Assembly: GCA_043819795.1 (NCBI GenBank)
Contig: JBDREN010000208.1
Span: 1-32,309, forward strand
Length of the DNA: 32,309 bases
Source of the DNA: Elusimicrobiota bacterium
GTDB lineage: Bacteria > Elusimicrobiota > Elusimicrobia > UBA1565
Direction: 5' to 3'
Shown: one piece after another, positions 1 to 29,246 of the stretch
Layout of the letters: every line of letters starts with the position of its first letter
Position numbering within the stretch: position 1 is the first letter of the stretch
Program-made: the position numbers and the translations under genes
Notes under the pieces: generated by a model
Told to the model about the DNA's origin: nothing
The model's input: only the letters and a program-made list of their open reading frames with translations
The model's database searches: none

Positions 1-726
1 CGGCTGGACCCGACGGGCTGCGGGCCCGCGGGGTCCTGGGCGGCGAAGCATCTTTGCTGGCGGGCGGAGGCGGCCATGTTCCGCGGGGACGTCCGCGCGG
101 CGTTCCGGGGCATGGGGGAAGCCCTGCGGCTCAGCGGCGGAGCGCCCTGGGTCCGGGCCTGGCGAGGCCAGATGGAGCTTTGGTGCGGCCGCTACGACCG
201 GGCCTTGACCGACCTGGAGCGGGCCCTGCGAGACGGCGGCAGCGACTGGGCGCACGGCTCGAAGGGCTGGACGCTGGGCTGGCGCGGCCTGGCCAAGCTC
301 AAGCTCGAGCGGGCCGCCGAAGCCGTGCGCGATTTCAAGCGGGCCCTGGAGCTGAAGCCGAAGGACCCGGAGTCCCATGCCGGCATGGTCGAGGCACTTT
401 GGCGGCTGGGCCGCGAGGATCGGGCCCGCCGCGCTTTGGCGCCCGCCCGGAGGGCCGCGCCGGGCTCGGTGTGGCCGCACGTTCTGGCCTCGGTCCTCGC
501 CGGAGACCGCGCCGCGGTCCACTGGAGGCGGGCGGCGCGGATCTGCCCGGCGCTGGCGGCCTACGTCGCTGAGCGTGTGGGGGAGGGGCGCCCGCGCGCC
601 GCGGCCGAGGCGGCGCTCGACCTGTGCGCCGGCAACCGGACGCTGCAGCCGAGCGCGGTCCAGGGTCGCGGCGCGTCCGTCAAGGTCGTGGCCTTGTGGC
701 GGGTCGCGGCGGGGAGAAAACGGTAG
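1..726 (+). CDS. Trp-rich tetratricopeptide repeat protein, 5'-partial
   Basis: Frame 1 is open from base 1 (RLDPTGCG...CWRAEAAMFRG) to TAG 724-726. TPR-like units AWRGQMELWCGRYDRALTDLERAL and DFKRALELKPKDPESHAGM are present. Confidence 0.85.
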   Translation, partial: RLDPTGCGPAGSWAAKHLCWRAEAAMFRGDVRAAFRGMGEALRLSGGAPWVRAWRGQMELWCGRYDRALTDLERALRDGGSDWAHGSKGWTLGWRGLAKLKLERAAEAVRDFKRALELKPKDPESHAGMVEALWRLGREDRARRALAPARRAAPGSVWPHVLASVLAGDRAAVHWRRAARICPALAAYVAERVGEGRPRAAAEAALDLCAGNRTLQPSAVQGRGASVKVVALWRVAAGRKR

Positions 727-745
727 AGGAGTCTTCGAGGAAGCT

Positions 746-3700
746 ATGACGAACGCGGATAAACACTTTCTTGCGGCGAAGAAGAAGCACGAGGAGCGCT
801 TCGGCGACCAGATCGTCGTGGGCCTGGACCAGCTTACGCCGATCGACGCCAAGCATTGGGGCGGCTACTGCATGTGGCGGGTGCTGTGGTACGACCCGTA
901 CCGCCACGGCCGCGCCGTATTCGACCTCGATAAGGTCCTCGCCCAGCGGCCGCGGGACGTCGAGGCCCTGGCCCTGCGCGGCCGGATCCGCCGGATCCTG
1001 GGCGATCTCAAGGGGGCGCTGGGAGATTTTAAGAAGGCGCTGACGATCAGCCCCAACCACGCCTACGCCCGGGCCGCCTTGGCCGAGACCAAGATGGCCT
1101 GCGGCGAGCAGACCTCGGGGATGCAGGAGTTCGCGCGCGCCGAGAAGGCGGACCCGAAGCTGCTTTGGACCTACATCTGGCGCGCCTCCTGGGAGATGAG
1201 CGAGGAGGACCTCGAGGGAGCGGAGCGGGACGTCGCCATCGCCCGCGGGATGGGGCACGAGACCGTCATCGAGTACATCCTCGAGGGACTGCTCGCCATG
1301 AGGCGCCGGCAGTACAAGAAGGCCATCGACATCTACCGCCGCGCCAACAAGATGGACCCCGAGTCCCCCGGGGTCGTGATCATGCAGGGCGAGGCGAAGC
1401 TGCGCTCGGGCGACGAGAAGGGCGCGGGCGAGCTCTACGAGCGGGCCATCGTGATGGACCACGACTGCAAGGTGTCCTATCACACCTTCCTCGACTGCGG
1501 GGAGCCCCCGCAGGACGAGAGGGGGCTCAAGATCTTCGACGAGGCGCTCAAGAAGCGCCCGAAGGCCGCGTGGCTCTACGGCCTGCGCAGTGAGATCCTG
1601 CGCATGCCCAAGCTCGCGGCCTACCGCGAGTCCGTCTACGACCTGGAGAAGGCCGTGGAGCTCGCGCCCAAGAGCTCATGGCTGATGTCGTTTCTCGGGC
1701 GCGGCTACGCCCAGACCGGCCGGCTGGAGAAAGGGGTGGAATGCCTCAACAAGGCCGTGGAGCTCGACCCCAAGTGCGGCTGGGTGATCGCCTGGCGCGG
1801 GGAGGCCCTGCGCATCATGGGCGACCTCAAGCAGGCTATCAGCGACTTGACCGCCTCGATCCGGTTGGAGCGGCGCTACATGTACGCCTACCCGTGGCGG
1901 GGCGGGATCTTCCGCCTGCTCGAGCGCGTGGACGACGCCCTCGACGACCTCGATGCCGGCATGGACCTGCACCCCCGCTACCACCACACCTACCACCAGC
2001 GGGCCATCGCCAGGCTCTACGCGGGGATGGGCAAGCTCGCCATGCAGGACATGGAGCAGGCGGCGCGTTACCTGCCCAAGTACGCCTTCATCATGGGGCG
2101 CCTCAAGGGGCGCGAGAAGGAGTCGGCGCGCATCATGCGCGGGCTCGGCGAGGCGGTCAAGAAGAACCCCCGCGACGCCCGGCCCCTGGCCTGGCGCGGC
2201 GAGTCGCTGATGAAGCTCGGCGACTGGGAGGGCGCGGTCAAGGACCTTACGGCCGCGCTCAAGCGCGACCCCGAGATGGGCTGGGCCCACGCCTGGCGCG
2301 GGGAGGCGAACTTCAAGCTGGGACGCTGGGCCGGCGCGCTCGCCGACCTCGAGGAGGCGACGCGTCTCGACTCGACGTATCACCGCGCCTGGGCGTTTCG
2401 GGGCGCCGCGCTCTACCGGCTCGGGCGCCACAAGGAGGCCATCGAGGCGCTCGACATGTCCATGAAGCTCGACACGCGCTCGGCGTGGGCGTGGGCCTGG
2501 CGCGGCGAGGTCAAGCTGCGGCTCGGCGACTTCGAGGGCGCTCTCGCCGACGTGGACAAGGCCCTGAACTTCGAGATGAACTTCGTGGAGGCGCTCGTCT
2601 GGCGCGGCGACGCGCTCAAGGGCCTGGGCCGCTTCGAGGAGGCCATGACCGCGGTGAACCGGGCTCTGGAGCTCAACCCCGACCACGCGATCGGCTACAT
2701 CACGCGGGCGCTCATCAAGGAGAAGCTCGGCGACTTCTTCGGGGAGATGCTCGACTTCGCGCGCGCGCTGAAGAGCTCCCCCGACCTCCTCGACAAGTCC
2801 GCCCGGGAGACCCTTCGCGGGCAGCTTCTGGCCACGGCCGCCAAGGCGCTCGACGCGGGCGACGACAAGACCGCGCTCACGGCCGCCGAGGCCCTGGCCG
2901 GCATCGATCCGGAATGCGCGCAGGCCCATGCGGCGGTGTGCGAGGCCAAGCGCCGGCTCAAGGAAGAAGGCGCGCTGGAGGCGCTGGACAAGGCCCACGC
3001 GGGCAACGAGTACGGCGTGTGGTGCTACCTGGCCGGTCAATGGGAGAGCTTCGAGGACCTGTTCGGCCGGTTCGAGAGCGGGCCCGGCGGCCTGGGCCAG
3101 CGGACGATCCTGGGGCCGGACACCTACGAGCGCATCCTTTCGGAGACCGATCGTCTCATGAAGGGAGCGGAGGCCCGCGCCTGGGTCCACGGCCTTCGGG
3201 GGGAGGCCCGCTTCAAGACAGGGGACCTGGCCGGAGCCGTCGACGATTTGACCCGAGCGCTGAAGGCGCGGCCGGAGGACGCGAAGGCCTTGGCCTGGCG
3301 CGGCGAGGCGCGCTACTGGCGGGGGGACCGGAAAGGGGCCCTCGCCGACTTCGACAAGGCGGTCGCGCTCGAGCCCGGGTCGGCGTGGGCGCTGGCCTGG
3401 CGGGGCCAGCTCAAGCTTTGGATGGGACGCTACAAGGACGCGGCGAAGGACTTCACCGCGGCCCTCAAGCGCGACCCCAAGCACGCCTGGTCCTACGGCT
3501 GGCGCGGAGCGAGCAGGATGTGCCAGGGCGACATCCGGAAGGCTTTGCCGGACCTGGACCGCGCGCTCAAGCTCGATCCGCGCGACGTGGAGGCCCGGGT
3601 GTGGCGCGGCGAGGCGTACCGGCTGCTCGGCAAGCACGAGCGGGCCCTGACGGACCTCGACGAGGCGGTCCGGCTCTCGCCCGGGCAGTTCTGGGCGTTG

Positions 3701-3889
3701 CTCAACCGCTTCCTGGCCAACCAGGCGCTGGGCCGGAGCGACCAGGCCCGCCGCGACCTCGCCTCGGCGTCGCGGATCGGGAACGGGCGCAGGCTGCCCG
3801 GAAAGGACATGAAACAGGCCGCGGCCGCGGCCGAGCGGATGCTGGCGGAGGCCCGGGGAAGCCGGACCGAACCCGGCGTAGGAGCATGA
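746..3889 (+). CDS. Large Trp-rich TPR protein (TPR-A1), 1047 aa
   Basis: Start moved from 377 to ATG 746 (MTNADKHF): GAGGA lies just upstream and the homology to TPR-A2 begins here. Many ~34-aa repeats such as AWAWRGEVKLRLGDFEGALADVDKALNFE. No signal peptide. Confidence 0.9.
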   Translation: MTNADKHFLAAKKKHEERFGDQIVVGLDQLTPIDAKHWGGYCMWRVLWYDPYRHGRAVFDLDKVLAQRPRDVEALALRGRIRRILGDLKGALGDFKKALTISPNHAYARAALAETKMACGEQTSGMQEFARAEKADPKLLWTYIWRASWEMSEEDLEGAERDVAIARGMGHETVIEYILEGLLAMRRRQYKKAIDIYRRANKMDPESPGVVIMQGEAKLRSGDEKGAGELYERAIVMDHDCKVSYHTFLDCGEPPQDERGLKIFDEALKKRPKAAWLYGLRSEILRMPKLAAYRESVYDLEKAVELAPKSSWLMSFLGRGYAQTGRLEKGVECLNKAVELDPKCGWVIAWRGEALRIMGDLKQAISDLTASIRLERRYMYAYPWRGGIFRLLERVDDALDDLDAGMDLHPRYHHTYHQRAIARLYAGMGKLAMQDMEQAARYLPKYAFIMGRLKGREKESARIMRGLGEAVKKNPRDARPLAWRGESLMKLGDWEGAVKDLTAALKRDPEMGWAHAWRGEANFKLGRWAGALADLEEATRLDSTYHRAWAFRGAALYRLGRHKEAIEALDMSMKLDTRSAWAWAWRGEVKLRLGDFEGALADVDKALNFEMNFVEALVWRGDALKGLGRFEEAMTAVNRALELNPDHAIGYITRALIKEKLGDFFGEMLDFARALKSSPDLLDKSARETLRGQLLATAAKALDAGDDKTALTAAEALAGIDPECAQAHAAVCEAKRRLKEEGALEALDKAHAGNEYGVWCYLAGQWESFEDLFGRFESGPGGLGQRTILGPDTYERILSETDRLMKGAEARAWVHGLRGEARFKTGDLAGAVDDLTRALKARPEDAKALAWRGEARYWRGDRKGALADFDKAVALEPGSAWALAWRGQLKLWMGRYKDAAKDFTAALKRDPKHAWSYGWRGASRMCQGDIRKALPDLDRALKLDPRDVEARVWRGEAYRLLGKHERALTDLDEAVRLSPGQFWALLNRFLANQALGRSDQARRDLASASRIGNGRRLPGKDMKQAAAAAERMLAEARGSRTEPGVGA

Positions 3890-6114
3890 TCATGGGGAAA
3901 AAGAGAAAGAAGTCTGCGGAGCTCAAGGCGGTGGAGCGTAAGCTCATGGCGCGCGGCGTCTTCGGCACGGCCGCGTACCTCCCGGACGTCCTCAACCTGG
4001 ACCAGAGGCTGTATCTGGGATACACGATACCGCACGGCCAGCAGTACGACCTGGGCCGCTACGACGCGGAGCTGGAGGTCCTCAACCGGCTCATCAAGAG
4101 GTCGCCCAACGACGCGCGGCCCTTCGCGCTGCGGGGCAGGATCCGGCGCCACTTGATGCGCAAGCATGACGCCCTCGCGGACCTCGACCGGGCCGTGGAG
4201 CTGGACCCGGAGGACGCCCAGTCCTACGGGTGGCGCGGCGAGCTGTTGCTGGCCCTGGGCCGCTTCAACCTGGGCATGCAGGACCTGGAGAACGCCCGGA
4301 ACCTGGACCCCAAGTGGGTCTGGCCGTATATATGGGCCGCGATCGGCTGGCTGCTCCGCAACGAGATCGAGCCCAGCCTGGAGCTTCTCGATAAGGCGCT
4401 GCGGATCGATCCGGACTGCGGCTTGGCCCTCATACTGCGGGGCCGGGTGCGCCTGCAGCAAAAGAAGCCGCAGGAGGCGTACCCCGACCTCAAGCGCGCG
4501 ACCGAGCTCGACCCCAAGTGCATCGCGGCCCACGGATGCAAGGGCGTGGCGCTGGCGGCCATGGGGGACACCGAAGGGGCCGTGGCGGCGTTCACCGACG
4601 CGACCTACCTCGAGCCCGACGCGAAGACCTTTCACGACATCCTGATCTCCCACGACGGCCTGCTGGAGAACAGCCGGGAGTCGCTCGAGAAGCTCAACGC
4701 CTACATCAAGAAGCATCCCAAGGCCGCGTGGGCCTACACCCTTCGCGGCGACCTCATTCGCAACGCGCGTTTCGGCCGCTACGAGGACGGCATCAAGGAC
4801 CACCTGAAGGCAACGAGCCTCGAGCCCCATAAGTCGTGGCTCTGGGCGTGCCTCGCGCGCGCGCGCATCCAGTATTTCTACGTCAAAGAAGGGCTCAAGG
4901 ACATGGAGAAGGCCTGCGAGATCGATCCCGAATGCCCGTGGCTGCTCATGTGGCTGGGTGAGTCCAGGAGGCGCGACGGACAGTTCCGGGCGGCCATCAA
5001 GGACTTCAACGACACCATCAAGATGCAGCCGGACCTGCCCATGGTCTGGCTGTGGCGGGGCCGCATCCACAACGAGAAGGGGCGCTACCATCTGGCCATC
5101 AAGGACTTCGACCAGGCCATCCGCCTGGACCCGGCCTACGGGTACGCCTACGCCAAGCGGGGCGAGTCCCTGATGAATCTCGAGCGCTACCACGAAGCCG
5201 TGCGCGAATTCGATTGGGCGCTCAACACCCGCCTGCCCAACAACCATGAATGGGTGTTCGGGATGCGCGCGCGGGCCCGCTACGAGACGGGCGACTATCT
5301 GGGGATGTTCGAGGACATCTCCCGGACGCTAAAGCGGGACATCAAGCTCTGCTGGTTCCCGCTCGAGTACACGGCGAGCGTGGAGGACCCTAAGTGCTGG
5401 GAGATCCACCAGACGATCAGCGAGGCCCTGGCCCAGGACTCGAACGCCACCTGGCTCTACGGCTGGCGGGGCGCGGTCAAGCTGGCGCTGAACAAGCCCC
5501 TGGAAGGCGCGGCGGACCTGAGCCTCGCGATCCAGTGCGCCCCCACCTTCGCCTGGCCTCACGCCTGGCGCGGGCGCCTGTACTGGCAGACGGGCCGCAT
5601 GAAGGAAGCGGAGCGCGATCTGAAGGAAGCCGCGCGGCTCGACCCCACGTGCTCCTGGATCCACGGCTGGCTGGCCGAGCTCTACGTGACGTGCGGCGCG
5701 TTCCGGCAGGCCGTCGACGAGGCCACCACGGCGCTGCAGCTGTGGCCCAAGCTCGTGGACGCCTACTACGTCCGCGGGGAGGCCCTGCGCTGCCTCAAGC
5801 GCTACGATGAGGCCAAGCTGGACCTCGGCCGGGCCATCGCGATGAACCACCACCACAAGCTCGCCTTCGTCAGCCGGGCCATCCTGCACGGGGAGACCGG
5901 GGACCACCAGGCCCAGATCCAGGACTTCCGCCGGCTGGCGCAGTTCGCCCCCGAGATGCTCCGCAAGACCCTGGACCAGCTCGAGGTCATCGGCGGCAAC
6001 GCTAGGGTGAAGGTCACCCTCGAGCAGATACTGATGCAGGGGTCCGTGGCCACGCCGCCCGGGTTCGGAGGCAGGGAGCAGGCGGGCCAGCCCCCAAGGG
6101 GAGGAAGGGTATGA
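3886..6114 (+). CDS. Trp-rich TPR protein (TPR-B1), about 742 aa
   Basis: Start moved from 1678 to ATG 3886, an ATGA overlap with the upstream stop. ATG 3892 is an alternative, better spaced from AGGAG 3880-3884. Tandem TPRs, colinear with 16654-18867. Confidence 0.9.
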   Translation: MIMGKKRKKSAELKAVERKLMARGVFGTAAYLPDVLNLDQRLYLGYTIPHGQQYDLGRYDAELEVLNRLIKRSPNDARPFALRGRIRRHLMRKHDALADLDRAVELDPEDAQSYGWRGELLLALGRFNLGMQDLENARNLDPKWVWPYIWAAIGWLLRNEIEPSLELLDKALRIDPDCGLALILRGRVRLQQKKPQEAYPDLKRATELDPKCIAAHGCKGVALAAMGDTEGAVAAFTDATYLEPDAKTFHDILISHDGLLENSRESLEKLNAYIKKHPKAAWAYTLRGDLIRNARFGRYEDGIKDHLKATSLEPHKSWLWACLARARIQYFYVKEGLKDMEKACEIDPECPWLLMWLGESRRRDGQFRAAIKDFNDTIKMQPDLPMVWLWRGRIHNEKGRYHLAIKDFDQAIRLDPAYGYAYAKRGESLMNLERYHEAVREFDWALNTRLPNNHEWVFGMRARARYETGDYLGMFEDISRTLKRDIKLCWFPLEYTASVEDPKCWEIHQTISEALAQDSNATWLYGWRGAVKLALNKPLEGAADLSLAIQCAPTFAWPHAWRGRLYWQTGRMKEAERDLKEAARLDPTCSWIHGWLAELYVTCGAFRQAVDEATTALQLWPKLVDAYYVRGEALRCLKRYDEAKLDLGRAIAMNHHHKLAFVSRAILHGETGDHQAQIQDFRRLAQFAPEMLRKTLDQLEVIGGNARVKVTLEQILMQGSVATPPGFGGREQAGQPPRGGRV

Positions 6115-8513
6115 GGCCTTCGCAAGAGCTCGCACGGATCGTCGGCGCCTCGCGCGTCTCGACGGCGCCCGACGTCATCACGGAGTTCTCCCGCGACTTC
6201 GCGGGCCACGACCTGGGCCGGGCGATCGCGGTCGTGCGGCCGGCCACCGAGCAGCACGTGGTCCAGCTCGTCCAGTGGGCGCGCAGGACCAAGATCCCGC
6301 TGGTCGCGGTCGGCTCGCGCTCGAGCTTCTGGGCCGCCACGAAGGTGGGCGGGCGCGTGGCGGTGGACGTGCGCGGCATGACCAAGGTGATCAACATCGA
6401 TAAGACCGAGCTCATCCTGCGCGCGCAGGGCGGCATCCAGCTGGCCGACCTCGACGACATGCTCCGCGCGCAGGGGCTGTGCCTGCCGATGGTGCCCGAC
6501 GGCTTCGGCGACCCCGTGATCGCCACGTTGGTGAGCAATAACGCCATCACCGGGCTCGGCATGTTCGGCGGCGGGATCTCGCCCATGATCGTCTCGGCCA
6601 ACATCGTGCTGGGGACCGGGGAGGTCCTGAAGGCGGGGTCGTCCTCCGCGGTCTCGGGGCTGCATGACTTCGCCCGCAACGGCCTTCCCGACCTGCTGGG
6701 CCTCTTCTTCACTTCCGAGGGCGCGCTCGGGATCATCACCGAGCTGTCCATGCGCTTCGCGCCCGTCCCGGAGACCCGCACGCTGGCCATGAGCTTCGAG
6801 CCCTGCCTGGAGAACTACCGCAGGGCGAAGTCCGCGGTGATGTCTTTGCGCGGCGAGGATACCGTCTCGTACTGGCGCAACCACTCCTGGATCTCGGGGG
6901 ACCCCGACACCGTGGAGATCCAGGTGACGGGAAAGCCGGAGGAGATGGGCGCAAAGGTCCGCCGGCTGCAGCGGGTCTGCCGGGACCACGGCCTGCAGGA
7001 GCCCCAGCTGCTCCTCAACGAGCCTCCGCGCTGGGAGGAGCGCCCACTTAATAAGGAAAATTGGATGGGCTGCTCCATGCATTTCCCCTACGCGAACGCG
7101 GAGAAGCTCTATTCCATCTGGCTCAATTACATGCGGCCCCGCATGTCCGTCTTCGCGTCGCCCGACGGCTTTCTGAGGAACTACTTCAGCGCGGCCGGCG
7201 TGGCGGGCCTGTTCGCTTGGAACTACCGGGACGGCGAGCCCATGGAGTCGGCCAGCAGGGCCCTGGCGCGCGAGGCGCGCAAGCGCATGGCGCCGCTGGG
7301 CATCCCGTACCGCGTCGGGACGGCGTGGCGGCCCATCCTGGAGCGGCGGCTCGATCCCCTGTATTGCCGTCTTCTCGAGCGGCTCAAGAATATGTTCGAT
7401 CCGGACAACATCCTGAACCCGAACGTGGGATCTTTCGGAATAGCGCCCGCGCCGGCCAACGGCGCGCGTCCCGCGCGCAAGGCCGCCAAGCCCATCGAGC
7501 CTCGCGCCGAGGTCCAGGGCTATCCGCTCCGGCGGCCCTCCGGTACGTTCCGGACCGGCCGGCCCATGGGCACGGGGCTGGAAGCCCTGCTGCGCGAGCA
7601 GTACAAGTCCGAGAAGAGCGGGAAGGGGGGGCCAGCGGTGTCCAAGCCGGGACGCCCGGCCCTGCCTCCGGAGAGCTGGACCGAAGGACAGAGAGAGCCC
7701 CGGAGGCCCGCTCAGCGGCCCGCCCGGGCTCGGGCCCGGACGCTTCCCATGGAGGAAGGGGGCAGGCCCACCTTCCAGGCGCTTTTGGAGAGCAGGCTGG
7801 CCGAGAAGGACGTGCTCCCGGGCCAGCGGCCCCGCGCCGCGCGTCCGGCCAAGGCTCCGGCGCGCGCCCGGCGCGCCAAGACGGGACCGGCCGGCGAGCT
7901 CGAGCGTCCGGAAAAAGAGCCGATGCTGCCGGCTCCCATCGCGGCCGTCCCTCCGGCGGCCCGGCCTCCGTATAAGGTCGCGGTTGAGGACGATCTGGCG
8001 AGCGAGGTCCCCAGCCCGGCAAGGCGGCCCGCCCCGGCCCGGCGTAAACCGGCTCGCGGTCCCGCCCGGAAGGCGGCCACGGGGCGGGTCCGTTCAAAAC
8101 CCTCGCCTAAGCCGGTCGAGGAGACTGCGCTTCCCCCGATGCCGGGCTATTACGAGGAGAGGAAGCTGTTCGGCGGGGTCGCGCGTCCCTCCGCGCCCGA
8201 GCCGGCAAAGCTTCCGGCGGGCAAGCCTCGCCGTCCGGCGCCCGCCAAGGCGCGTCCCAAGGCCGCCAAGCGAGCCGTGCGTGAGCCGTCGAAGCGGCCC
8301 TCCATGTTCGTGCGCCTAGGCGGGGGCGACGGGGCCTCCCGTCCCGCGCCGGTCAAGCCGGCGGTCAAGGCGCCGCGTCCGCGCAAGGCCGCGAAGCGCG
8401 CGCGGCGCCAGAAGGCCGGGACCGGCGAGAAGATGCTCGATCGCCTCTGGGTCTTGATGACCGGGCATCACATCAAGACCCGCCGCAAGAGCCGCCGGAG
8501 GAAGCGCCGGTGA
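6111..8513 (+). CDS. FAD-binding oxidoreductase (FAD_binding_4 / VAO-PCMH fold) with ~355-aa basic low-complexity C-terminal tail (FAD-1)
   Basis: Motifs AVVRPATEQHV, VAVDVRGMTKVI, VLGTGEVL, SEGALGIITE and LKNMFDPDNILNP. ATGA overlap with TPR-B1. P/A/R/K-rich tail after about 7440. Substrate unknown. Confidence 0.88.
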   Translation: MRPSQELARIVGASRVSTAPDVITEFSRDFAGHDLGRAIAVVRPATEQHVVQLVQWARRTKIPLVAVGSRSSFWAATKVGGRVAVDVRGMTKVINIDKTELILRAQGGIQLADLDDMLRAQGLCLPMVPDGFGDPVIATLVSNNAITGLGMFGGGISPMIVSANIVLGTGEVLKAGSSSAVSGLHDFARNGLPDLLGLFFTSEGALGIITELSMRFAPVPETRTLAMSFEPCLENYRRAKSAVMSLRGEDTVSYWRNHSWISGDPDTVEIQVTGKPEEMGAKVRRLQRVCRDHGLQEPQLLLNEPPRWEERPLNKENWMGCSMHFPYANAEKLYSIWLNYMRPRMSVFASPDGFLRNYFSAAGVAGLFAWNYRDGEPMESASRALAREARKRMAPLGIPYRVGTAWRPILERRLDPLYCRLLERLKNMFDPDNILNPNVGSFGIAPAPANGARPARKAAKPIEPRAEVQGYPLRRPSGTFRTGRPMGTGLEALLREQYKSEKSGKGGPAVSKPGRPALPPESWTEGQREPRRPAQRPARARARTLPMEEGGRPTFQALLESRLAEKDVLPGQRPRAARPAKAPARARRAKTGPAGELERPEKEPMLPAPIAAVPPAARPPYKVAVEDDLASEVPSPARRPAPARRKPARGPARKAATGRVRSKPSPKPVEETALPPMPGYYEERKLFGGVARPSAPEPAKLPAGKPRRPAPAKARPKAAKRAVREPSKRPSMFVRLGGGDGASRPAPVKPAVKAPRPRKAAKRARRQKAGTGEKMLDRLWVLMTGHHIKTRRKSRRRKRR

Positions 8514-12360: not shown

Positions 12361-12389
12361 AGGGATCAGGACGTCGACGGGCACGCAAG

Positions 12390-12436
12390 ACGCATAAAAC
12401 GGTAGAATAATTCGATATCCGAATAGGGGAGGGAGC
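12390..12436 (+). promoter_or_regulatory. Putative internal promoter (-10 TAGAAT) and RBS for TPR-E
   Basis: The largest intergenic gap in the TPR cluster (78 bp) and AT-rich. TAGAAT at 12403-12408, ATTCG-N5-CGAAT at 12410-12424, then AGGGGGAGGGAG. No canonical -35. Confidence 0.45.
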
Positions 12437-12438
12437 AC

Positions 12439-14268
12439 ATGAGCACCATGACCAGCGCGAGGCGAGTGTCCGGGAAAGGAGGCGCGGTCCAAAGGGACCG
12501 GCGGGACGCGCCGGTGGACCGGGCTCAGGACGTGGATCTTTCGACCAACGGGTGGCTCGACCACGCCCGGAAGGCGGCCTACTACGTGGAGCCGCGCGCG
12601 GGCTGGGTCTACGCGTGGAGGGACTACGTGATCCCGGACCCGACGGAGCACCTTCGGCTGCGCGCGACCCTGCGCCGCGTGGTGGGACGCGGCACCGCGA
12701 ACGCCGAACTGTGGTCCTACCTCGGCGAGATCGAGCGCAAGCTCGACAACCCGCAGGAGGCCATGCGCTGCTTCGACAAGGCGCTCAAGCTCGACCCCTC
12801 CTTCGGCCCGGCCTACGCTTGGAAGGGAGAGGCTCTGCGCGACATCCAGCGCTACGATGAAGGACGCGCCGCTTTGGAGCGCGCGGCGAAACTGATGCCG
12901 AGGGAGCCGTGGGTGCTGGCTTTGCTCGCGCGGGCAAACGGGGACTTCAGGCCGGCGCACCTGCACTACTCGCTGCCCATCTTCGCCAAGGCGATCGCCC
13001 TGGCCCCCAAGGCCGGCTGGATCCGCGCCTGGCGCGGGGAGGCCTGGCGGCGGCTCAAGAAGCACAAGGAGGCGCTCAAGGACTACACCTTCGCCGCGAA
13101 GCACGGCTCGCCTCTTTCGTGGACCGTCATGTGCCGGGGTGAGGTGTACCGGAAGCTCAGGCGGATGGACCTCGCGGAGAGGGACTACCGGCTGGCCGAG
13201 CGCATGGACCCGAACAACCCCTGGATTCCCGTGGCGCGCAGCGAGGTCTGCCGTACGGAGCGCAGGTTCGAGGACGCGATCAAGCACCTGAAGGACGCCG
13301 TCCGCCTGAGCGGCAAGGCGGCCTGGGCCTACGGGATGCTGGGCCGCGTGGAGTTCGTCTACGCCTACCCGAAGGAAGGCCTGGAGGATATGAGCCGTTC
13401 GATACGCATGAAGCCCTTGGGCTGGTGCGTGGCGTGGCGCGGCGAGGCGTACCGGCACCTGGGCCAACTCAAGAAGGCCCTGGCCGACCTGACCTGGGGG
13501 CTCAAGCTCGATCCCGACTACGGCTGGACCTGGGCGTGGCGGGGCGGCACGCGCCGCCGGCTGGGCGACCTGAAGGGGGCGATGGAGGACCTCAACGAGT
13601 GCGCCAGGGCGTACACGTTCTATCCGTGGGTGTTCTCAGAGAGGGCGCTGGTCAAGCGCGCGATGGGGGACCTCCCGGGCGCCTTCGACGACATGGAGGA
13701 GGCCATCCACCGGGACCAGAAGTATTTCTGGATCCAGCATCCGTCCCAGGAGAAAGAGGGGCTGAGCTGTCTGGAGCGCTACCTCAAGAAGCGCCCGCGT
13801 GACGCGCGCGGGGTCTCGTGGTACGCCCAGGCCCTGACCCAGGCCAAGCGCATGGAGGAGGCTCTGGAGAACTTCGAGCGCGCCGAGAAGCTTCTCAAGG
13901 GGAAGACGACCGAGTTCCACGGTTGGATGCTGACCTGGTGGGCGGAGGCCCTGTTCCGGGCCGGACGGGGACGCGAGGCCCTGCCGAAGGTCCAGCAGGC
14001 TCTGCGCCTGGCGCCGAAGTACATGCACGCGCACGCCTGGCACGGGCGGATCCTGGCGACTTTGGGCAAGCTGAAGGAAGGTCGCAAGGCGCTTGAGAAG
14101 TCGCTCAAGATCTTCCCGCGCACGGCGTGGGCGTGGGCGTGGCTGGCCGAGGTGACGGTGGCTCTCGGCGACCGCAAAGCCGCGGCGTACGCCGTGGACC
14201 AGGCGTTGATGGTGGAACCGAACTACGTGTTCGCCAAAGAGCTCAAGGCGTTCATCGAGAAGCTGTGA
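12439..14268 (+). CDS. Trp-rich TPR protein (TPR-E), 609 aa
   Basis: Strong RBS and clear TPRs (YLGEIERKLDNPQEAMRCFDKALKLDPSFGPAYAWKGE). Confidence 0.9.
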   Translation: MSTMTSARRVSGKGGAVQRDRRDAPVDRAQDVDLSTNGWLDHARKAAYYVEPRAGWVYAWRDYVIPDPTEHLRLRATLRRVVGRGTANAELWSYLGEIERKLDNPQEAMRCFDKALKLDPSFGPAYAWKGEALRDIQRYDEGRAALERAAKLMPREPWVLALLARANGDFRPAHLHYSLPIFAKAIALAPKAGWIRAWRGEAWRRLKKHKEALKDYTFAAKHGSPLSWTVMCRGEVYRKLRRMDLAERDYRLAERMDPNNPWIPVARSEVCRTERRFEDAIKHLKDAVRLSGKAAWAYGMLGRVEFVYAYPKEGLEDMSRSIRMKPLGWCVAWRGEAYRHLGQLKKALADLTWGLKLDPDYGWTWAWRGGTRRRLGDLKGAMEDLNECARAYTFYPWVFSERALVKRAMGDLPGAFDDMEEAIHRDQKYFWIQHPSQEKEGLSCLERYLKKRPRDARGVSWYAQALTQAKRMEEALENFERAEKLLKGKTTEFHGWMLTWWAEALFRAGRGREALPKVQQALRLAPKYMHAHAWHGRILATLGKLKEGRKALEKSLKIFPRTAWAWAWLAEVTVALGDRKAAAYAVDQALMVEPNYVFAKELKAFIEKL

Positions 14269-16637
14269 AGAGCGCGAACAAGCGCCTCCTCGCCGCGAAG
14301 CGCAAGTGGCTGGATTACCGCATGGACCAGATCGTCATGGGTCTGGACCAGCTCACGGCGGTCGACGCCGCGGACTGGTCCGGCTACGCCATGTGGCGGC
14401 CGCTGGCCGTGGACCCGCACCGCTTCGGCGGCGTGGTCTTCGATCTCGACAAGGCGCTGGAGAAGGCGCCCGAGGACGTCGAGGCCCTGGCCATGCGCGG
14501 CCGGGCGCTCCGGATCGTGGGCGACTTCAAAGGCGCCCTGGCCGACCTGAGGCGCGCGCTCGAGCTGCGTCCCGACGACGGATACGCCCGGGCCTGCCTG
14601 GGCGAGCTGAGGCTCGCCATGGGCGAGGAGGGACAGGCGGCCGACGCCTTCTCCCGCGCCGAGCGGGGCGACCCGGACATGATCTGGACCTATGTCTGGC
14701 GCGGGGCGTGGGCGTTGCTCAAGGGCGACCTGACCCAGGCGGGCAAGGACCTGGAGACCCTGCGGGTGATCGGCGAGGAGAAGGTCGTCATCAACCTGCT
14801 CGCGGGCGTGCTCTCGACGAAGCTGAGGGACTTCAAGGAGGCCATCCGGCTTTTCGACCGGGCAGCTGTTATTGACTCGCATTGCGGAGGGACCCTCGTG
14901 ATGCGCGGGCACTCGCGCCTGTGGGACGGCGACGAGAAGGGCGCGGCCGCGGACTACGAGGAGGCCATCCGCTTCGACCACGACTGCAAAGTGGGCTACT
15001 ACCAGATCATCGGCTGCGGGGACCTGGAGCCCACCGCGAAGGATCTCGCGTTTCTCGATGGGGCGATCCGCAAGCGTCCGGACGCGGCCTGGCTCTACGG
15101 CCTGCGCAGCGAGATCCTGCGGATGCCGAAGCTCTCGCTCTACCTCGACTCGGTCAAGGACCTCGAGAAGGCCGTGGAGCTCGATCCCAAAAGTCCCTGG
15201 CTCATGGCGTTTTTGGGGCGCGGGTATGCCCAGACCGGCCAGCCGGAGAGAGGGGTGGAGTGCCTCTATAAGGCTGTGAAGCTGGACCCGACTTGCGGAT
15301 GGGTCATCGCCTGGCGCGGCGAGGCGGTACGGATAGCCGGGAAGTTCAAGGAGGCTATCGACGACCTGACGAAGGCCATCAAGTACGAGCCGTACTACAT
15401 GTACTCCTACGTCTGGCGGGGCGGGCTCTACCGCCTAATGGAGCGGGAGCGCGAGGCCCTGGCCGACCTGGACTTCGCCATGACTCTGCACCCCCGCTAT
15501 CCGCACGGCTACCATCAGCGGGCGTTCGCGCGGCTCTACGCGGGCATGGGCAAGGAAGCGATGGAGGATATGGCCCAGGCGGTCCGCTTCAACCCGAAGT
15601 ACAGCTGGGTGCACGGGAAGCTGGCGGGTCGCGAGAAGGAGTGGCGGCGCGTCTTGAAGGGGCTCGATACGGCCGTGGCCCAGGAAAAGAAGGGCGGCTG
15701 GCCCCTGGCCTGGCGCGGTGAGGCGAGGCTCAAGCTCGGCGACTGGGAAGGGGCTTTGGAGGATCTGGCCGCCGCGGTGAAGCGGGACCCCAAGCTGGCG
15801 TGGGGCTGGGCCTGGCTCGGTGAGACCAAGATCAAGCTCGGGAAGGCGGGCTCGGCCCTGCCGGACCTGCAGAAGGCGACGCAGCTCGACCCGACCTACG
15901 CCCGCGCGTGGTCCTGGAAGGGCGCGGCCCTCTCGCGGCTGGGGCGCTGCCCCCTGGCCCTCGAGGCGTTCAACGAGGCGATGCGTCTGGATCCGCGCTC
16001 GGCGTGGGCGTGGGGCTGGCGCGGCGAGGTGAAGCTGCGGGTCCAGGACTTCGAGGGCGCGCTCAAGGACCTGGACAAGGCCCTCACCTTCGACCTTCGT
16101 TTCGTCGAGGCGCATATGTGGCGCGGCGAGGCGCTCGCGGGACTGGGCCGCTTCGAGGACGCGATCGTCGCGATCGACCGGGCCCTGGAGTTCAACCCGG
16201 AGCACGCCATGGCCTACGTGACGCGGGCTTTGGCCAAGGAGAAGCTCGGCGATTTCTTCGGGGAGATGCTCGACTTCGCCCGGGCGCTCAAGTTCATGCC
16301 CGAGCTGATGGACAAGACCGCTCGCGAGCGGCTGAGCGAGCAGCTGATGGAGCGGGTCGCCGAGAAGCTCGAATCGGGCGATCCGACGGCGGCTCTCGAG
16401 GCCGCGGAGGCGGTGCTCGGCTTCGATCCCGGCAACGCGGACGCGCAGGCCGTGGTCCGCGATACGAAACGTTCCTCGAAAGACGGAGGCTCGCGCCGGA
16501 CCCGGCCCAAGGGGTCTCGGCACGGCTCCGCTCCGCGGTCGAAGCCGTCCCGCGAGCCCGTTCCGGCCGGCCGCGCGTCGAGGCGCAAGCCGGCGCGCCT
16601 TAGCGCGCCGGTGATCCGGCTGCGCCCGAGGAGTTGA
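14265..16637 (+). CDS. Trp-rich TPR protein (TPR-A2), paralog of 746-3889, 790 aa
   Basis: Start moved from 14127 to GTG 14265 (GTGA overlap). Shares identical blocks with TPR-A1, e.g. AAWLYGLRSEILRMPKL and EKLGDFFGEMLDFARALK. Confidence 0.9.
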   Translation: MKSANKRLLAAKRKWLDYRMDQIVMGLDQLTAVDAADWSGYAMWRPLAVDPHRFGGVVFDLDKALEKAPEDVEALAMRGRALRIVGDFKGALADLRRALELRPDDGYARACLGELRLAMGEEGQAADAFSRAERGDPDMIWTYVWRGAWALLKGDLTQAGKDLETLRVIGEEKVVINLLAGVLSTKLRDFKEAIRLFDRAAVIDSHCGGTLVMRGHSRLWDGDEKGAAADYEEAIRFDHDCKVGYYQIIGCGDLEPTAKDLAFLDGAIRKRPDAAWLYGLRSEILRMPKLSLYLDSVKDLEKAVELDPKSPWLMAFLGRGYAQTGQPERGVECLYKAVKLDPTCGWVIAWRGEAVRIAGKFKEAIDDLTKAIKYEPYYMYSYVWRGGLYRLMEREREALADLDFAMTLHPRYPHGYHQRAFARLYAGMGKEAMEDMAQAVRFNPKYSWVHGKLAGREKEWRRVLKGLDTAVAQEKKGGWPLAWRGEARLKLGDWEGALEDLAAAVKRDPKLAWGWAWLGETKIKLGKAGSALPDLQKATQLDPTYARAWSWKGAALSRLGRCPLALEAFNEAMRLDPRSAWAWGWRGEVKLRVQDFEGALKDLDKALTFDLRFVEAHMWRGEALAGLGRFEDAIVAIDRALEFNPEHAMAYVTRALAKEKLGDFFGEMLDFARALKFMPELMDKTARERLSEQLMERVAEKLESGDPTAALEAAEAVLGFDPGNADAQAVVRDTKRSSKDGGSRRTRPKGSRHGSAPRSKPSREPVPAGRASRRKPARLSAPVIRLRPRS

Positions 16638-16653
16638 TCGGGAGGAGCTTGAG

Positions 16654-18867: not shown

Positions 18868-18884
18868 GGTACGAGGAGACGACG

Positions 18885-19454
18885 ATGGCGAAGAAGGCCC
18901 GAAAGAAGGGCGTCCGGAAAAAGAAGGCGTCACCGTTCGACGGAACGATTTTGCCGCCGATCCCGCGCATCACCATACCCCGGGAGGTGCGCGAGGCCTT
19001 GCCGGAGCCCGTGGATCCCCGGCTCAAGGCATGGGCCGAGCAGGCCGAGGTCGAGGTCATCCGGGACCGGATCGGGTTCGACGTGAGCAAGGAGGTCACC
19101 CACTTCTCTCGCAACCTGGGCCTCAGCGGGGAGCAGAAGAGGCGGGTGACCCTCCACATGTCGGCCAAGAACCGTCTGCTGAGGGAACACGCCACGGTCC
19201 GCCGGGCGCACCGGGAGAAGACCTTCGCGCTGCACAGGCAGATCCTGGCCCTCAACCGCAAGTTCGACAAGATGCTCAAGCGCATGGAGGTCGAGGAGGA
19301 CGAGGTCCAGGCGCGCGTCCGCAAGGAGCTCCGGCCGGACCAAAAGAAGCAGTACGACCTGCTGCTGCAGGAGCGCGACCGCATCGAGAAGGAGTGGCTC
19401 CGCTCCTACGAGAAGCGGGTCAGGGAGCTGCCGCCTCCGCGCGGAAACGTATAG
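18885..19454 (+). CDS. Hypothetical helical protein, 189 aa, with two LTxxQ-like motifs (Spy/CpxP-like)
   Basis: Start moved from 18411 to ATG 18885 (GAGGAG upstream). Basic N-terminus, Pro-rich segment, then LGLSGEQKRRV and LRPDQKKQY flanking a charged helix. The CDS is well supported; the family call is tentative. Confidence 0.7.
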   Translation: MAKKARKKGVRKKKASPFDGTILPPIPRITIPREVREALPEPVDPRLKAWAEQAEVEVIRDRIGFDVSKEVTHFSRNLGLSGEQKRRVTLHMSAKNRLLREHATVRRAHREKTFALHRQILALNRKFDKMLKRMEVEEDEVQARVRKELRPDQKKQYDLLLQERDRIEKEWLRSYEKRVRELPPPRGNV

Positions 19455-21017
19455 GTGAGCGTCCAATCGGAGCTCTCGCGCTTGGCGCCGCGCGGGCGCG
19501 TGGTCTTTTCAAGCGAAGGGCTCAGATACTACGCTTCCGATTTCGCCGGCCACGCCTGCGGCAGGGCGCTCGCCGCGGTCCGTCCCGTCTCGATCGAGGA
19601 GGTCGCGGCCCTGGTGCGATGGGCGCGGCGCCGCCGGATCCCCCTGGTCCCGGCGGGCTCTTTGACCAGCTTCTGGGGCAACATGAACGCGGGCGGCGCC
19701 GTCATCGTGGACATGCGCGGCATGTCGCGGCTGGTCGCCTTCGACGAGGCCGAGCGCACCGTGACCGTGGAGGCCGGCATGAGCGTCGCGGCTCTCGACC
19801 GCGCCCTGCGCGCCAAGGGCTTCTGCCTGCCCGTCTCCCCCACCGGCTTCGGGGCCGCGACCGTCGCTTCCATGGTGGCCAACGACACGAACGCCGGGCA
19901 CGGGATGTTCTCCGGCGATGTGGCGCCGCACCTGGTGGGCCTGACCGCGGTGCTGGGCACCGGGGAGGTCCTCCGGACCGGGGGCTCGGCCCTGCCGCCG
20001 GAGCTGCCCCGGTTCTCGCGCGCCGGGCTTCCCGATCTCGCGGGGCTGTTCCTGGCCTCGGAGGGGGCTTTGGGGATCATCACGGAGCTCGTGCTGCGCG
20101 TGCCCCCGGCCCCGCGGGTCCGCGCCTTCGAGCTGCGAGTCCCGCGGGACGTCGAGTCCTTCGAGCGCGTCGTGGCCGCGGCGCAGGCCGTGCGCGGCGG
20201 GATGCTGTGCCATTCCTGGATCCACGAGAGCTCGACGACGTCTCAGCCGGACGTGTCGCACATCCAGATCGCGGGTTACGGCTCCGGCGAGGAGCTCGAG
20301 GCCAAGCGCCTCTATCTGGCCCAGGCGTTGCGCGCCAACGGCCTTCCGCCCGCCCGGGCGCTCCGGGAGCCTCCCTCCATGTGGTTTTATCCGAAGGCCC
20401 AGCCGCGGGGGGAGGAAGGCCCGCGCCAGGCCACGAGATGGAAGGGGGTGGCGTTCGATCTTCCCTACGCGCGCGCGGTGAGGGCTTACTCGCTCTGGCA
20501 GCAGCGGCTGCGGCGGGACGTCGCGCGGCTCGCCCTGCCGAAAGGCGGGCTTCAGACCTACTTCGGGCGCGAGGCCGTTCTGGCGCTGCCCTGGTGGCTG
20601 CACTCGACGGAGGCCGGAGAGGAGCGGGCGCGCGAGCTCGAGACGAGGTTCCGCGAGGTCCTGGGCCCGCTGGGCGTGCCGTACCGGCTGGGAACGGACG
20701 TCGGCTCCCGGTTCGCGGAGCGCCTCGACCCGTCGTACCGCGAGGCCCTGGGCGCGGTTAAGCGCTGGTTCGACCCCGACGGCGTCCTGAACCCCGGCGT
20801 CGGCGTGTTCGCGGCTGCGGCCCGGAAGGGCCGCAGTGCCGGGAAAAGAATCCCGCGATCGGGCGCCGCAAAGGCGGCGGCCCGGCAGTGCCGCAGTGCC
20901 CGGCCGCCTAAGGCAGGCGTTGCGGTCCGTGGTGCAGTGGCCCGGCAGGGCCGCAGTGCCCGGCCGCCTAAGGCAGGCGTTGCGGTCCGTGGTGCGGCGA
21001 GCCGCCGCCGGCGCTGA
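19455..21017 (+). CDS. FAD-binding oxidoreductase (FAD_binding_4 / VAO-PCMH fold), paralog of 6111-8513 (FAD-2)
   Basis: GTG directly abuts the upstream TAG. Motifs DFAGH..GRA, VIVDMRGMSRL, VLGTGEVL, GLPDLAGLFLASEGALGIITEL and VKRWFDPDGVLNP. Confidence 0.88.
   Translation: MSVQSELSRLAPRGRVVFSSEGLRYYASDFAGHACGRALAAVRPVSIEEVAALVRWARRRRIPLVPAGSLTSFWGNMNAGGAVIVDMRGMSRLVAFDEAERTVTVEAGMSVAALDRALRAKGFCLPVSPTGFGAATVASMVANDTNAGHGMFSGDVAPHLVGLTAVLGTGEVLRTGGSALPPELPRFSRAGLPDLAGLFLASEGALGIITELVLRVPPAPRVRAFELRVPRDVESFERVVAAAQAVRGGMLCHSWIHESSTTSQPDVSHIQIAGYGSGEELEAKRLYLAQALRANGLPPARALREPPSMWFYPKAQPRGEEGPRQATRWKGVAFDLPYARAVRAYSLWQQRLRRDVARLALPKGGLQTYFGREAVLALPWWLHSTEAGEERARELETRFREVLGPLGVPYRLGTDVGSRFAERLDPSYREALGAVKRWFDPDGVLNPGVGVFAAAARKGRSAGKRIPRSGAAKAAARQCRSARPPKAGVAVRGAVARQGRSARPPKAGVAVRGAASRRRR
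20880..20995 (+). repeat. In-frame 60-bp tandem repeat, two near-identical copies plus a degenerate copy at about 20820-20840
   Basis: GCCCGGCAG(T/G)GCCGCAGTGCCCGGCCGCCTAAGGCAGGCGTTGCGGTCCGTGGTGC starts at 20880 and 20940. It encodes ARQ(C/G)RSARPPKAGVAVRGA twice. Confidence 0.95.
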
Positions 21018-21027
21018 TTTCCGGACT

Positions 21028-22731: not shown

Positions 22732-22744
22732 GGGGGCGGGACGG

Positions 22745-23395
22745 ATGGCGAACCGGAAAGCCGTGCGGGTGCTGCTGGCGGACGACCACGGGATCGTCAG
22801 GGAGGGCTTGGCTCAGGTCCTTAAGGAGAGCAGGGGTATCAAGGTCGTGGGCCAAGCGGAGAACGGAGAGCAGGCGTTGGACCTGGCCGCCACGGCGCGG
22901 CCGGACGTCATCGTTCTGGATTACAGCATGCCCGACATGGACGCCCCGGCCGTGATCGAGCAGCTGGTCCGACGCCTGCCGCGGACCAGGATCCTCATCC
23001 TGACGGTACACGAGAACATCCACTACGCCGTGAAGGTCCTGGAGAGCGGCGCGCACGGCTACGTCATCAAGTCCGCCGCGGTCCAGGAGCTGGTGGACGC
23101 CATCGGCGCCGTGCACAAGGGGGAGCTCTACATCTCCCCGAGGGTGTCGCAGAAGGTCATGCAGCACATCTGGCGCCCCAGGAAGCGCCGCGCCGGCCTG
23201 GAGGCCCTTTCCCAGCGAGAGTTCAGCCTGCTGCGGGTCCTGGGGGCCGGGATGAGCCTCAAGGACTGCGCCAAGTACCTGAACATCAGCACCAGCACAG
23301 CCTCCACCTACCGATCCCGCCTCATGGAGAAGCTCAACCTCAAGAGCACCTCGGAGATCATCCGCTTCGCCCTGGAGAACGACGTCGTAGGATAG
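22745..23395 (+). CDS. NarL/FixJ (LuxR-HTH) family response regulator
   Basis: Receiver motifs VLLADDH, VLDYSMPD and GYVIKS; HTH LSQREFSLL...LNISTSTASTYRSRLMEKL. Confidence 0.96.
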   Translation: MANRKAVRVLLADDHGIVREGLAQVLKESRGIKVVGQAENGEQALDLAATARPDVIVLDYSMPDMDAPAVIEQLVRRLPRTRILILTVHENIHYAVKVLESGAHGYVIKSAAVQELVDAIGAVHKGELYISPRVSQKVMQHIWRPRKRRAGLEALSQREFSLLRVLGAGMSLKDCAKYLNISTSTASTYRSRLMEKLNLKSTSEIIRFALENDVVG

Positions 23396-23470
23396 GCGTC
23401 AGGTGTTAACTTTGTTAACCAGCTCCCGGCCAGTGGGGGCACTTAGTTGACAAAGTTAACACCTGACGCC
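23395..23470. repeat. 25-bp inverted repeat with 26-bp spacer between convergent genes (REPIN-like element or bidirectional terminator)
   Basis: 23395-23419 GGCGTCAGGTGTTAACTTTGTTAAC versus the reverse complement of 23446-23470, GGCGTCAGGTGTTAACTTTGTCAAC: 24/25 match. Confidence 0.9.
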
Positions 23471-23474
23471 CATA

Positions 23475-23780
23475 CTACTTTCCCGTCGGCTGCAGCTTCC
23501 GCAAGGGAGCGGGCCGGGGCTCCCGGATCTTGCCGTGCTCCTTCTCGTATTTGGAGATGGCGCTCTTGAGCTCGTAGAAAAGCCGCTTGGTCTGCGTCGC
23601 GTCCAGGCGGAGCCGGGCGACCATGTGGGTCATCTGGTTGCAGATCGCCGTGTTGTGGATGTGCATGTAGTCGACGACGAAGCCGTCGTCTTCAATCTCA
23701 ACGGCGGTATGATTAACGAACTTGGGCTTACTGACCTTCGGGTCCACGAACACCTGGATGGCTCTTTTCTTGACGGGCAT
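23475..23780 (-). CDS. DUF3467-like small protein, 101 aa
   Basis: Pattern FVNHTAV...FVVDYM...ARLRL...TKRL..EL...ISKYEKEHGKI matches my recollection of DUF3467. GGAGG RBS. Confidence 0.75.
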   Translation of the reverse strand: MPVKKRAIQVFVDPKVSKPKFVNHTAVEIEDDGFVVDYMHIHNTAICNQMTHMVARLRLDATQTKRLFYELKSAISKYEKEHGKIREPRPAPLRKLQPTGK

Positions 23781-23813
23781 GGGTCCCTCCGTGACGGAAA
23801 AACTAACATCGAT

Positions 23814-23822: not shown

Positions 23823-23851
23823 AGGCTGTTGTCGCCCCGCAAGCTGTCGCC

Positions 23852-27569: not shown

Positions 27570-27573
27570 GGCG

Positions 27574-29245: not shown

Positions 29246-29246
29246 T

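Follow-up and report, generated by a model that had tools for sequence, protein, structure and literature searches.

The window analyzed here, contig C208 in its entirety (32,309 nt; JBDREN010000208.1), belongs to the assembly of an Elusimicrobiota bacterium labeled G000 below, a source genome of 4.99 Mb with 67% GC in 241 contigs, and its positions 1–21017 are occupied by eleven plus-strand genes encoding eight tetratricopeptide repeat (TPR) proteins, two FAD_binding_4 flavoproteins, and one Spy/CpxP-like protein. This block is very probably the distal arm, duplicated in part, of a much enlarged HxsA4-type Hxs radical S-adenosylmethionine (SAM) cluster. Our best reading, as far as sequence comparison allows, is that the cluster represents a conserved, undescribed-looking Hxs maturation system for a ribosomally synthesized and post-translationally modified peptide (RiPP), a new form of the known Hxs kind; the narrower proposal, that the TPR proteins of this arm act as substrate-holding adaptors presenting a His-Gly-Ser repeat peptide to tailoring enzymes, has in our estimate an even chance of being right. 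Throughout, G1 to G11 denote the window genes, G with three digits a genome, and C with a number a contig; distribution counts refer to 101 genomes of the order, a separate phylum sample comprising 401 genomes. G001, from the family of the source genome, is 100% complete, G010 is 95% complete, and f2 denotes a sister family. The homologues of the cluster genes carry Elusimicrobiota as their source label.

The eleven genes are tightly packed, with six of the ten junctions overlapping or abutting (−4 or 0 nt) and no gap wider than 78 nt, and the preliminary description of them as co-oriented and as eight TPR, two FAD_binding_4, and one helical product is borne out by coordinates, Pfam, NCBIfam, and a hidden Markov model (HMM) built from the window's own repeats. 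Pfam assigns TPRs to G1, G2, G3, and G7, and TPR-family NCBIfam models match all eight; the 92 units counted with the HMM cover 49–66% of G2, G3, and G5–G9 and 28% of the partial G1. All eight stay below the NCBIfam equivalog cut-offs of the named TPR families PrsT, MamA, PilW, Tgl, and NlpI. They are indeed Trp-rich, at 2.7–5.0% compared with 1.1–1.7% in the other three products, and the reported absence of signal peptides from the TPR proteins holds in that a Kyte-Doolittle hydropathy check, made with no dedicated signal predictor, finds no hydrophobic signal or membrane segment in any of the eleven products. Three pairs are paralogous (G2 and G8, 58% identity; G3 and G9, 51%; G4 and G11, 39%; 66–71% at the DNA level), and judged from these identities a unit of TPR-A, TPR-B, and FAD gene is duplicated inside the window.

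Because the window is a whole contig, its left edge is an assembly break: G1 is cut by the contig end and lacks about 90 N-terminal residues relative to its G001 orthologue, and these residues have no match elsewhere in the source assembly. The suspicion that key genes lay past this edge proved correct, as contig C32 and genome G001 together supply a precursor, radical SAMs, and halogenase-like and prenyltransferase-like genes. The open right end of C32 falls inside a third flavoenzyme copy, 61% identical to G4, and upstream of that copy stands a His-Xaa-Ser cluster with tailoring genes, including an HxsB radical SAM (TIGR03978, 480.5 bits against a cut-off of 370) and an HxsD (TIGR03976, 52.0 against 50). 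Its HxsA4-like precursor is 75% identical to the G001 peptide, which passes the HxsA4 model NF038313 (77.2 against 55), and, being shorter, scores 38.7 on the same model. Five further C32 genes have HxsC or HxsC4 (TIGR03977/NF038332) as their best match, all below cut-off (at best 165 of 268 and 137 of 500), and the contig also holds two more HxsB-like genes and one flavin-dependent halogenase-like gene with a Pfam Trp_halogenase match and the WxWxIP motif. Behind the latter follows a pair of prenyltransferase-like genes, 33% identical paralogues, one product of which has an ABBA aromatic prenyltransferase fold (Atlas features 0.95–0.96; TM score 0.74 to Trp_DMAT, the top structural match). 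A third block, on C4, carries two more Trp-rich TPR genes together with FG-GAP/ASPIC and A24-like genes.

In G001 these elements stand on a single contig, C43, as one minus-strand run of hxs genes (hxsA4, hxsB, hxsD, and HxsC-like radical SAMs), FG-GAP, halogenase-like, two prenyltransferase-like, FAD, G5, G6, G1, G7, C4-type TPR, and G2 genes, with orthologue identities of 43% for FAD, 48% for G5, 45% for G6, 43% for G1, 45% for G7, and 44% for G2. G9, an A24-like gene, and two G10-like genes lie about 40 kb beyond G2, past an insertion. Short contigs of G004, G015, and G434 repeat the same partial gene orders, and TPR-A is again followed by TPR-B there; the G9 orthologues of these three genomes and of G001 are each followed by an A24-peptidase-like gene, and G10 has paired orthologues in G001, G004, and G015. 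The TPR arm as a whole is nevertheless rearranged among genomes, and since the single contig exists only in the relative G001, the one-cluster reading for the source genome reaches across an assembly gap. In the sequencing run that holds part of the stretch, bases 1–334 are uncovered and no contig runs over the C208 end.

Some further observations concern the surroundings of these blocks. A repeated element of at least 40 bp, with 18 exact 40-mer matches, sits at or near many G000 contig ends (C4, C32, C50, C63, C69, C83, C131, and others) as well as within contigs, and is the likely cause of the assembly breaks. The G001 array is interrupted by an AbiEii-like nucleotidyltransferase pair (L017:10768-12152), and the roughly 40 kb between its TPR-A and TPR-B genes (G001:C43, 44.6–85 kb) include a giant repeat protein. 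Two more Hxs-like loci exist in G000, one on C120 (68.5–77.5 kb) with hxsA, an HxsB-like gene, an A24-like gene, and long genes for putative radical SAMs, the other on C96 (21–25 kb) with HxsB- and HxsC-like genes, where a precursor was looked for and none was found.

The precursors combine a basic leader, a hydrophobic stretch, and a Gly-X-Y-like His-Gly-Ser core; six of them, 102–156 aa long, include four with a Pfam Collagen match and none with a Pfam match to a peptidoglycan-binding domain. The HxsA4 precursors, including that of C32 (L023:11526-11831), share the basic N-terminus, a conserved acidic motif, and the hydrophobic stretch, a leader that may be akin to prepilin-type (Flp-pilin-like) leaders, for which Pfam returns no match. 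The f1 precursor contains no Trp and is poor in aromatic residues. In those of f2 (L141–L145; G300:C13, G318:C4), His-Gly-Ser repeats number up to about 20 and the C-terminal tail is rich in Cys and Trp, and the clusters of L141–L145 hold TPR-radical SAM and halogenase-TPR fusions. An A24-peptidase-like gene is found in many clusters (C4, C120, G319:C37, G389:C62), and its product may be the leader peptidase; the G015 arm includes a peptide hydroxylase of the aKG-HExxH family (91, above 40).

The obvious point of comparison is the HXS antiphage system, described in 2026 in the main text of PMC13128918 as a four-gene block to phage entry, the first function assigned to Hxs genes, with chemistry not reconstituted in vitro. 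In the E. coli system, HxsABCD, the proteins HxsB, HxsC, and HxsD mature HxsA, leaving +8 Da on the HxS motif, and matured HxsA blocks phage DNA entry (Li et al., Nat Commun 2026, PMC13128918); of the systems published, by the same account, more than 99.8% consist of four genes, and 99.7% occur in Pseudomonadota. C32 and G001 have in common with it an HxS-repeat precursor, HxsB and HxsD above their cut-offs, and several radical SAMs that resemble HxsC, those of C32 below cut-off. The published gene order is hxsD-B-C-A, whereas the Elusimicrobiota cluster is expanded and reordered, with at least 30 genes, three hxsD/hxsB-like sets, and 8–13 TPR proteins, and adds halogenase-like, prenyltransferase-like, flavoenzyme, HExxH, and A24-like genes. 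E. coli HxsA has a peptidoglycan-binding domain, whereas the precursors here, at about 100 aa, lack one. TPR, Elusimicrobia, halogenase, and prenyltransferase are not mentioned in the main text of PMC13128918, and we found no published account of this cluster or of such a TPR array, literature coverage being incomplete for subscription papers. PADLOC returned no convincing match, with one weak match among 10 proteins.

What distinguishes the TPR proteins is a ladder of Trp and Glu residues. Of the 92 units, 51% have Trp at position 2 and 61% have it at position 6, and position 9 is occupied by Glu in 47% or by Arg in 20%; in alignments with consensus TPR structures, Trp6 falls on Asn6 and position 9 on Asn9. 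With positions 2, 5, 6, 9, and 13 counted as the groove, orthologue pairs (25, one of them a paralogue pair) are 64% identical at groove positions, 65% in the core, and 32% in the outer helix. Among 17 full-length pairs, Trp6 is kept in 122 of 127 instances, Trp2 in 100 of 113, and Glu9 in 94 of 99, compared in the same pairs with 30 of 66 for Trp at other non-outer positions and 93 of 253 for outer-helix Glu; such strong retention of the groove residues suggests that the ligand is constant and not diversifying. Position 6 is that of the substrate-binding Asn ladder of OGT and SPINDLY, as described in PMC9715652, and collagen prolyl 4-hydroxylase (P4H) is described in PMC12433258 as having an aromatic-lined TPR groove for its Gly-X-Y substrate. 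As a working analogy only, the window proteins share with these TPR domains long arrays that repeat one residue type at groove position 6, and the likeness to collagen P4H would extend to a groove lined by aromatic residues next to enzymes whose presumed target is a repetitive peptide. The window proteins differ in using Trp/Glu instead of Asn or Tyr and in being mostly stand-alone, 8–13 per cluster; other peptide pathways are described with single TPR proteins or domains (PMC12257519, PMC12715798).

Relatives of these proteins connect the ladder to the enzymes. Only 18 of the 120 listed TPR-B matches have Trp6 in at least 30% of their units, and four of those 18 are fused to a radical SAM domain that, in the source genome, matches an HxsC-like gene of C32 best (35–39%); close relatives of G9 (40–59%) number only four among the 120 matches listed. 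Strong matches to one such TPR-radical SAM fusion occur in 14 of the 101 genomes, all in f2, with the gene, on those contigs that show its position, a few kb past hxsA, and the same f2 arrays contain a halogenase-TPR fusion. In f2 (G300, G318, G034), arrays of about 10–13 Trp-ladder TPR genes stand behind the same hxs front end, counts that are approximate as frames cut at locus borders may add one. A five-repeat profile made from the window TPRs matches in 32 of the 101 genomes, G007 not among them; 27 of the 32 also have an hxsA match, and in 12 a TPR match and hxsA are no more than 40 kb apart on one contig, by a hand count from two match tables. Profile matches fall inside the cluster in 11 of 11 cases in G001, 14 of 16 in G318, and 13 of 22 in G300, and from this placement the repeat is concentrated in these clusters without being exclusive to them, many hxsA clusters lacking it. 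In the source genome, 14 proteins have at least four units, and all 10 of the Trp-rich ones lie on C208 or C4, so that a genome-wide TPR expansion is rejected there; the earlier suggestion of an undescribed system finds support, the system being conserved and undescribed-looking.

The flavoenzymes had been described as GlcD/Dld-type, which fits their fold and fails at the catalytic motif. FAD_binding_4 is the sole Pfam match of G4 and G11, and both have the ~450-aa two-domain FAD_binding_4 fold of GlcD, D-lactate dehydrogenase (D-LDH), and D-2-hydroxyglutarate dehydrogenase (D-2-HGDH): the G4 core model (mean predicted local distance difference test score, pLDDT, 76.7) is closest to D-LDH (Z 30.0, rmsd 3.3, 402 residues aligned, 20% identity), with 4-phenol oxidases at Z 25–26, and the Atlas model of G11 reaches a TM score of 0.89 to FAD_binding_4 plus FAD-oxidase_C proteins. 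In D-2-HGDH, D-LDH, and GlcD a Glu-His pair, metal ligand and base, is described as strictly conserved (PMC7801405); in the alignment this column is Tyr-Arg in 17 of 17 family rows covering it and Glu-His in three control rows. Both proteins also remain far below the GlcD NCBIfam cut-off (69 and 94 of 568), and a GlcD/Dld function is rejected on account of the replaced motif; the reported lack of a glcE/F or ETF partner beside them was confirmed. The window Tyr-Arg aligns, anchored by a following conserved motif, with Tyr473-Arg474 of p-cresol methylhydroxylase (PCMH), the position of Tyr503-Arg504 in vanillyl-alcohol oxidase (VAO), where Tyr503 holds the phenolate and Arg504 stabilizes the reduced flavin, as described in PMC6017454. 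The window enzymes thus share the superfamily fold and the C-terminal Tyr-Arg with 4-phenol oxidases (VAO, EUGO, PCMH), from which they differ in being about 70 aa shorter, in an identity of 16–19%, and in having Phe in place of the N-terminal Tyr. Distant family members have an N-terminal Tyr aligned with that of vanillyl-alcohol dehydrogenase 8s7w, presumably at the position of VAO Tyr108, the second residue there that binds the phenolate.

The family is present in eight of the 101 genomes and in five of the 401 of the phylum sample; among the best 150 representatives, 47 are Tyr-Arg, 28 Glu-His, and 75 uncallable by the pattern used, and an FAD-alignment scan of the genome contigs, with 80 loci kept, gave one close member, the rest being generic homologues at 23–33%. 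A wider Tyr-Arg FAD_binding_4 subfamily (P0137–P0199, L136–L139) stands beside, or is fused to, flavin-dependent halogenases outside Elusimicrobiota-like clusters. Very basic low-complexity tails end both window enzymes and are absent from the orthologues: in G4 the flavoprotein part covers residues 1–450 and is followed by a 350-aa Pro/Ala/Arg-rich tail (7461–8513), and in G11 the 65-aa tail (20820–21017) has a short tandem repeat inside and overlaps the next gene by 38 nt.

Taken as a working model, the HxsB/HxsC-like enzymes together with HxsD would act on the repeat core in the manner of the E. coli HXS proteins, the flavin-dependent halogenase and the ABBA-fold prenyltransferases would add marks on aromatic residues, and the Tyr-Arg flavoenzymes would oxidize the resulting aromatic, possibly phenolic, group, with the aKG-HExxH hydroxylase of the G015 arm perhaps also working on the HxsA4 peptide. 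The TPR superhelices would thread the repetitive core through their Trp/Glu-lined groove and bring it to the enzymes, as the TPRs of OGT, SPINDLY, and collagen P4H do, before the A24-like peptidase removes the leader ahead of export. The adaptor proposal draws on gene content, orthology, and synteny, on the Trp/Glu ladder and how well it is conserved, and on the TPR-radical SAM, halogenase-TPR, and halogenase-flavoenzyme fusions of relatives. A bolder version, which we hold only tentatively and think doubtful, is an assembly line of 30–50 genes in which a collagen-like (His-Gly-Ser)n chain might be threaded past radical SAMs, halogenase, prenyltransferases, hydroxylase, and a new Tyr-Arg flavoenzyme to yield a heavily modified, exported, polymer-like effector, the dozen Trp/Glu-ladder TPR proteins being a new class of RiPP core-recognition module.

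A number of observations weigh against the cluster and adaptor readings. Eight to thirteen large adaptors would be many for one peptide of 100–150 aa, and most window TPRs are net basic, like the precursor leader. No join of C32 to C208 was found, the contig ends sharing no 21–40-mer, and the C4 block is without hxsA. With hxsA-like peptides in 66 of the 101 genomes and Trp-ladder TPRs in less than half that number, maturation does not need the array; conversely, five of the 32 Trp-ladder carriers have no hxsA match. G013 has hxsA and no Trp-ladder profile match, and G010 has the whole front half, its FAD gene cut by the contig end, but no G5, G6, G7, TPR-A, or TPR-B orthologue recovered with the window queries. 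Trp-ladder TPRs also occur outside the cluster (9 of 22 in G300, 2 of 16 in G318). As for the flavoenzymes, D-LDH precedes the phenol oxidases as the closest fold of G4, the active-site and FAD-binding loops of its model are poor (pLDDT below 50), the alignment to the PCMH motif, taken by itself, is weak (E 0.8), and the N-terminal phenol-oxidase Tyr is Phe in both window enzymes.

Among other explanations, the TPR array could be the sensing or regulatory layer of an expanded HXS-like defense, its repeats recognizing invader proteins or nucleic acid and switching on or localizing matured HxsA. The sole tested Hxs system is antiphage (PMC13128918), and the basic charge of most window TPRs, the patchy distribution, the AbiEii-like pair inserted in the G001 array, and the fact that actinobacterial ATPase-TPR proteins are the commonest named generic relatives among the 120 TPR-B matches listed would all suit such a layer. 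A diversifying sensor, however, would hardly keep its groove as conserved as its core, the window TPRs have no ATPase or effector domain, and neither the PADLOC result nor the missing peptidoglycan-binding domain of the precursor speaks for defense, which leaves this explanation unlikely in our view. It is rather less probable still that the Trp-rich TPR proteins are themselves the substrates, their exposed Trp ladder being halogenated or prenylated and oxidized, or that they co-assemble into a large cytoplasmic scaffold. The Trp_halogenase match with its WxWxIP motif, the Trp_DMAT-like prenyltransferase fold, and a Trp-free f1 precursor poor in aromatic residues speak for this idea, but fusions of TPRs to radical SAM and halogenase fit an adaptor better, and f2 genomes have TPR arrays without the flavoenzyme.

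The model first put forward for this locus, in which a self-contained cytoplasmic TPR assembly serves to hold or supply the two flavoenzymes, we now regard as very unlikely. The linkage between the two across genomes is real in part: all five carriers of the TPR-A leader (of 101 genomes) are among the eight with the flavoenzyme, these carriers being kin and non-independent, the FAD gene directly precedes the G5 orthologue in G000, G001, and G004, and the duplicated unit comprises TPR-A, TPR-B, and FAD gene. Given that order of FAD gene and G5, TPR protein and flavoenzyme may still touch each other directly. It breaks down where the stretches examined in G389 and G319 show the flavoenzyme with no TPR frame and with one, respectively, and where TPR arrays exist in genomes outside the eight carriers (G300, G318, G034). 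A halogenase-like gene, on the other hand, lies within three genes of the flavoenzyme in seven of the eight genomes, the G004 contig being too short, the flavoenzyme stands directly behind one in three of four distant metagenome loci, and the two are fused in P0166; from this adjacency, the fusion, and the TPR-poor loci, the steady partner of the flavoenzyme is the halogenase and not the TPR array, which is why a scaffold for flavoenzymes is improbable. Hitch-hiking, in which a lineage-specific TPR expansion gathered beside the hxs block without shared function, is the most remote of these ideas, since stand-alone Trp-ladder TPRs in f2, a rearranged arm, and kinship of the carriers are outweighed by one-to-one orthologues, conserved order and translational coupling in two families, enzyme fusions, and strong groove conservation.

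The individual window genes are collected in Table 1. G10 itself has no Pfam match; its assignment is taken from a paralogue in G015 with which it shares 30% identity (E 5e-16 in the pairwise comparison) and which passes Pfam LTXXQ (26.1 > 24.3). A site scan of 11500–24500 gave 2 promoter-like sites where 0.7 were expected and 9 terminator-like sites where 6.1 were expected, and was uninformative within the cluster interior. The genes downstream look ordinary: a Cache/HisKA_3 kinase with a NarL-like regulator (20980–23395) and DUF3467 (23478–23780) are followed by an FAD oxidoreductase operon with a fumarate hydratase-like gene (26124–30975) and a TauE exporter (31046–32155).

Table 1. Genes of the putative Hxs arm in the window (positions in nt)
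Gene and assignment	Position	Strand	Basis
G1, Trp-ladder TPR, C-terminal part only	1..726	+	Pfam TPR; 43% to ~318-aa orthologue in G001:C43
G2, TPR-A1, 1047 aa, family-specific leader	746..3889	+	15 units; orthologues 43–50% in G001, G004, G015, G434
G3, TPR-B1, 742 aa	3886..6114	+	13 units; 51% to G9
G4, FAD-1, VAO/PCMH-superfamily flavoprotein with Tyr-Arg motif	6111..8513	+	FAD_binding_4; modeled core
G5, Trp-ladder TPR, 769 aa	8510..10819	+	15 units; 48–50% orthologue directly behind flavoenzyme in G001, G004
G6, Trp-ladder TPR, 514 aa	10816..12360	+	9 units; 44–47% orthologue after G5 in G001, G015
G7, Trp-ladder TPR, 609 aa	12439..14268	+	11 units; 45–46% orthologues in G001, G015
G8, TPR-A2, 790 aa, shorter G2 duplicate	14265..16637	+	58% to G2 over 743 aa
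G9, TPR-B2, 737 aa	16654..18867	+	46–59% orthologues in G001, G004, G015, G434
G10, helical Spy/CpxP-like (LTXXQ-like), without signal peptide	18885..19454	+	Similarity to G015 paralogue
G11, FAD-2, second Tyr-Arg flavoprotein, 520 aa	19455..21017	+	FAD_binding_4; 39% to G4

Phage defense is the only tested role of any Hxs system (PMC13128918). The cluster described here, from an uncultured phylum, would be roughly ten times the size of such a system and brings in additional enzyme classes as well as TPR modules, some of them fused and others free-standing. Several leads follow that can be tested: the Tyr-Arg family, which accompanies flavin-dependent halogenases, as a new kind of active site within the VAO/PCMH superfamily; the Trp-ladder TPR as a type of repeat-peptide binder, predicted so far from its sequence; and a peptidase that is a candidate for leader removal. 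Should the adaptors prove real, they could account for the handling of the repetitive HxS core and may help to reconstitute HxsA maturation.

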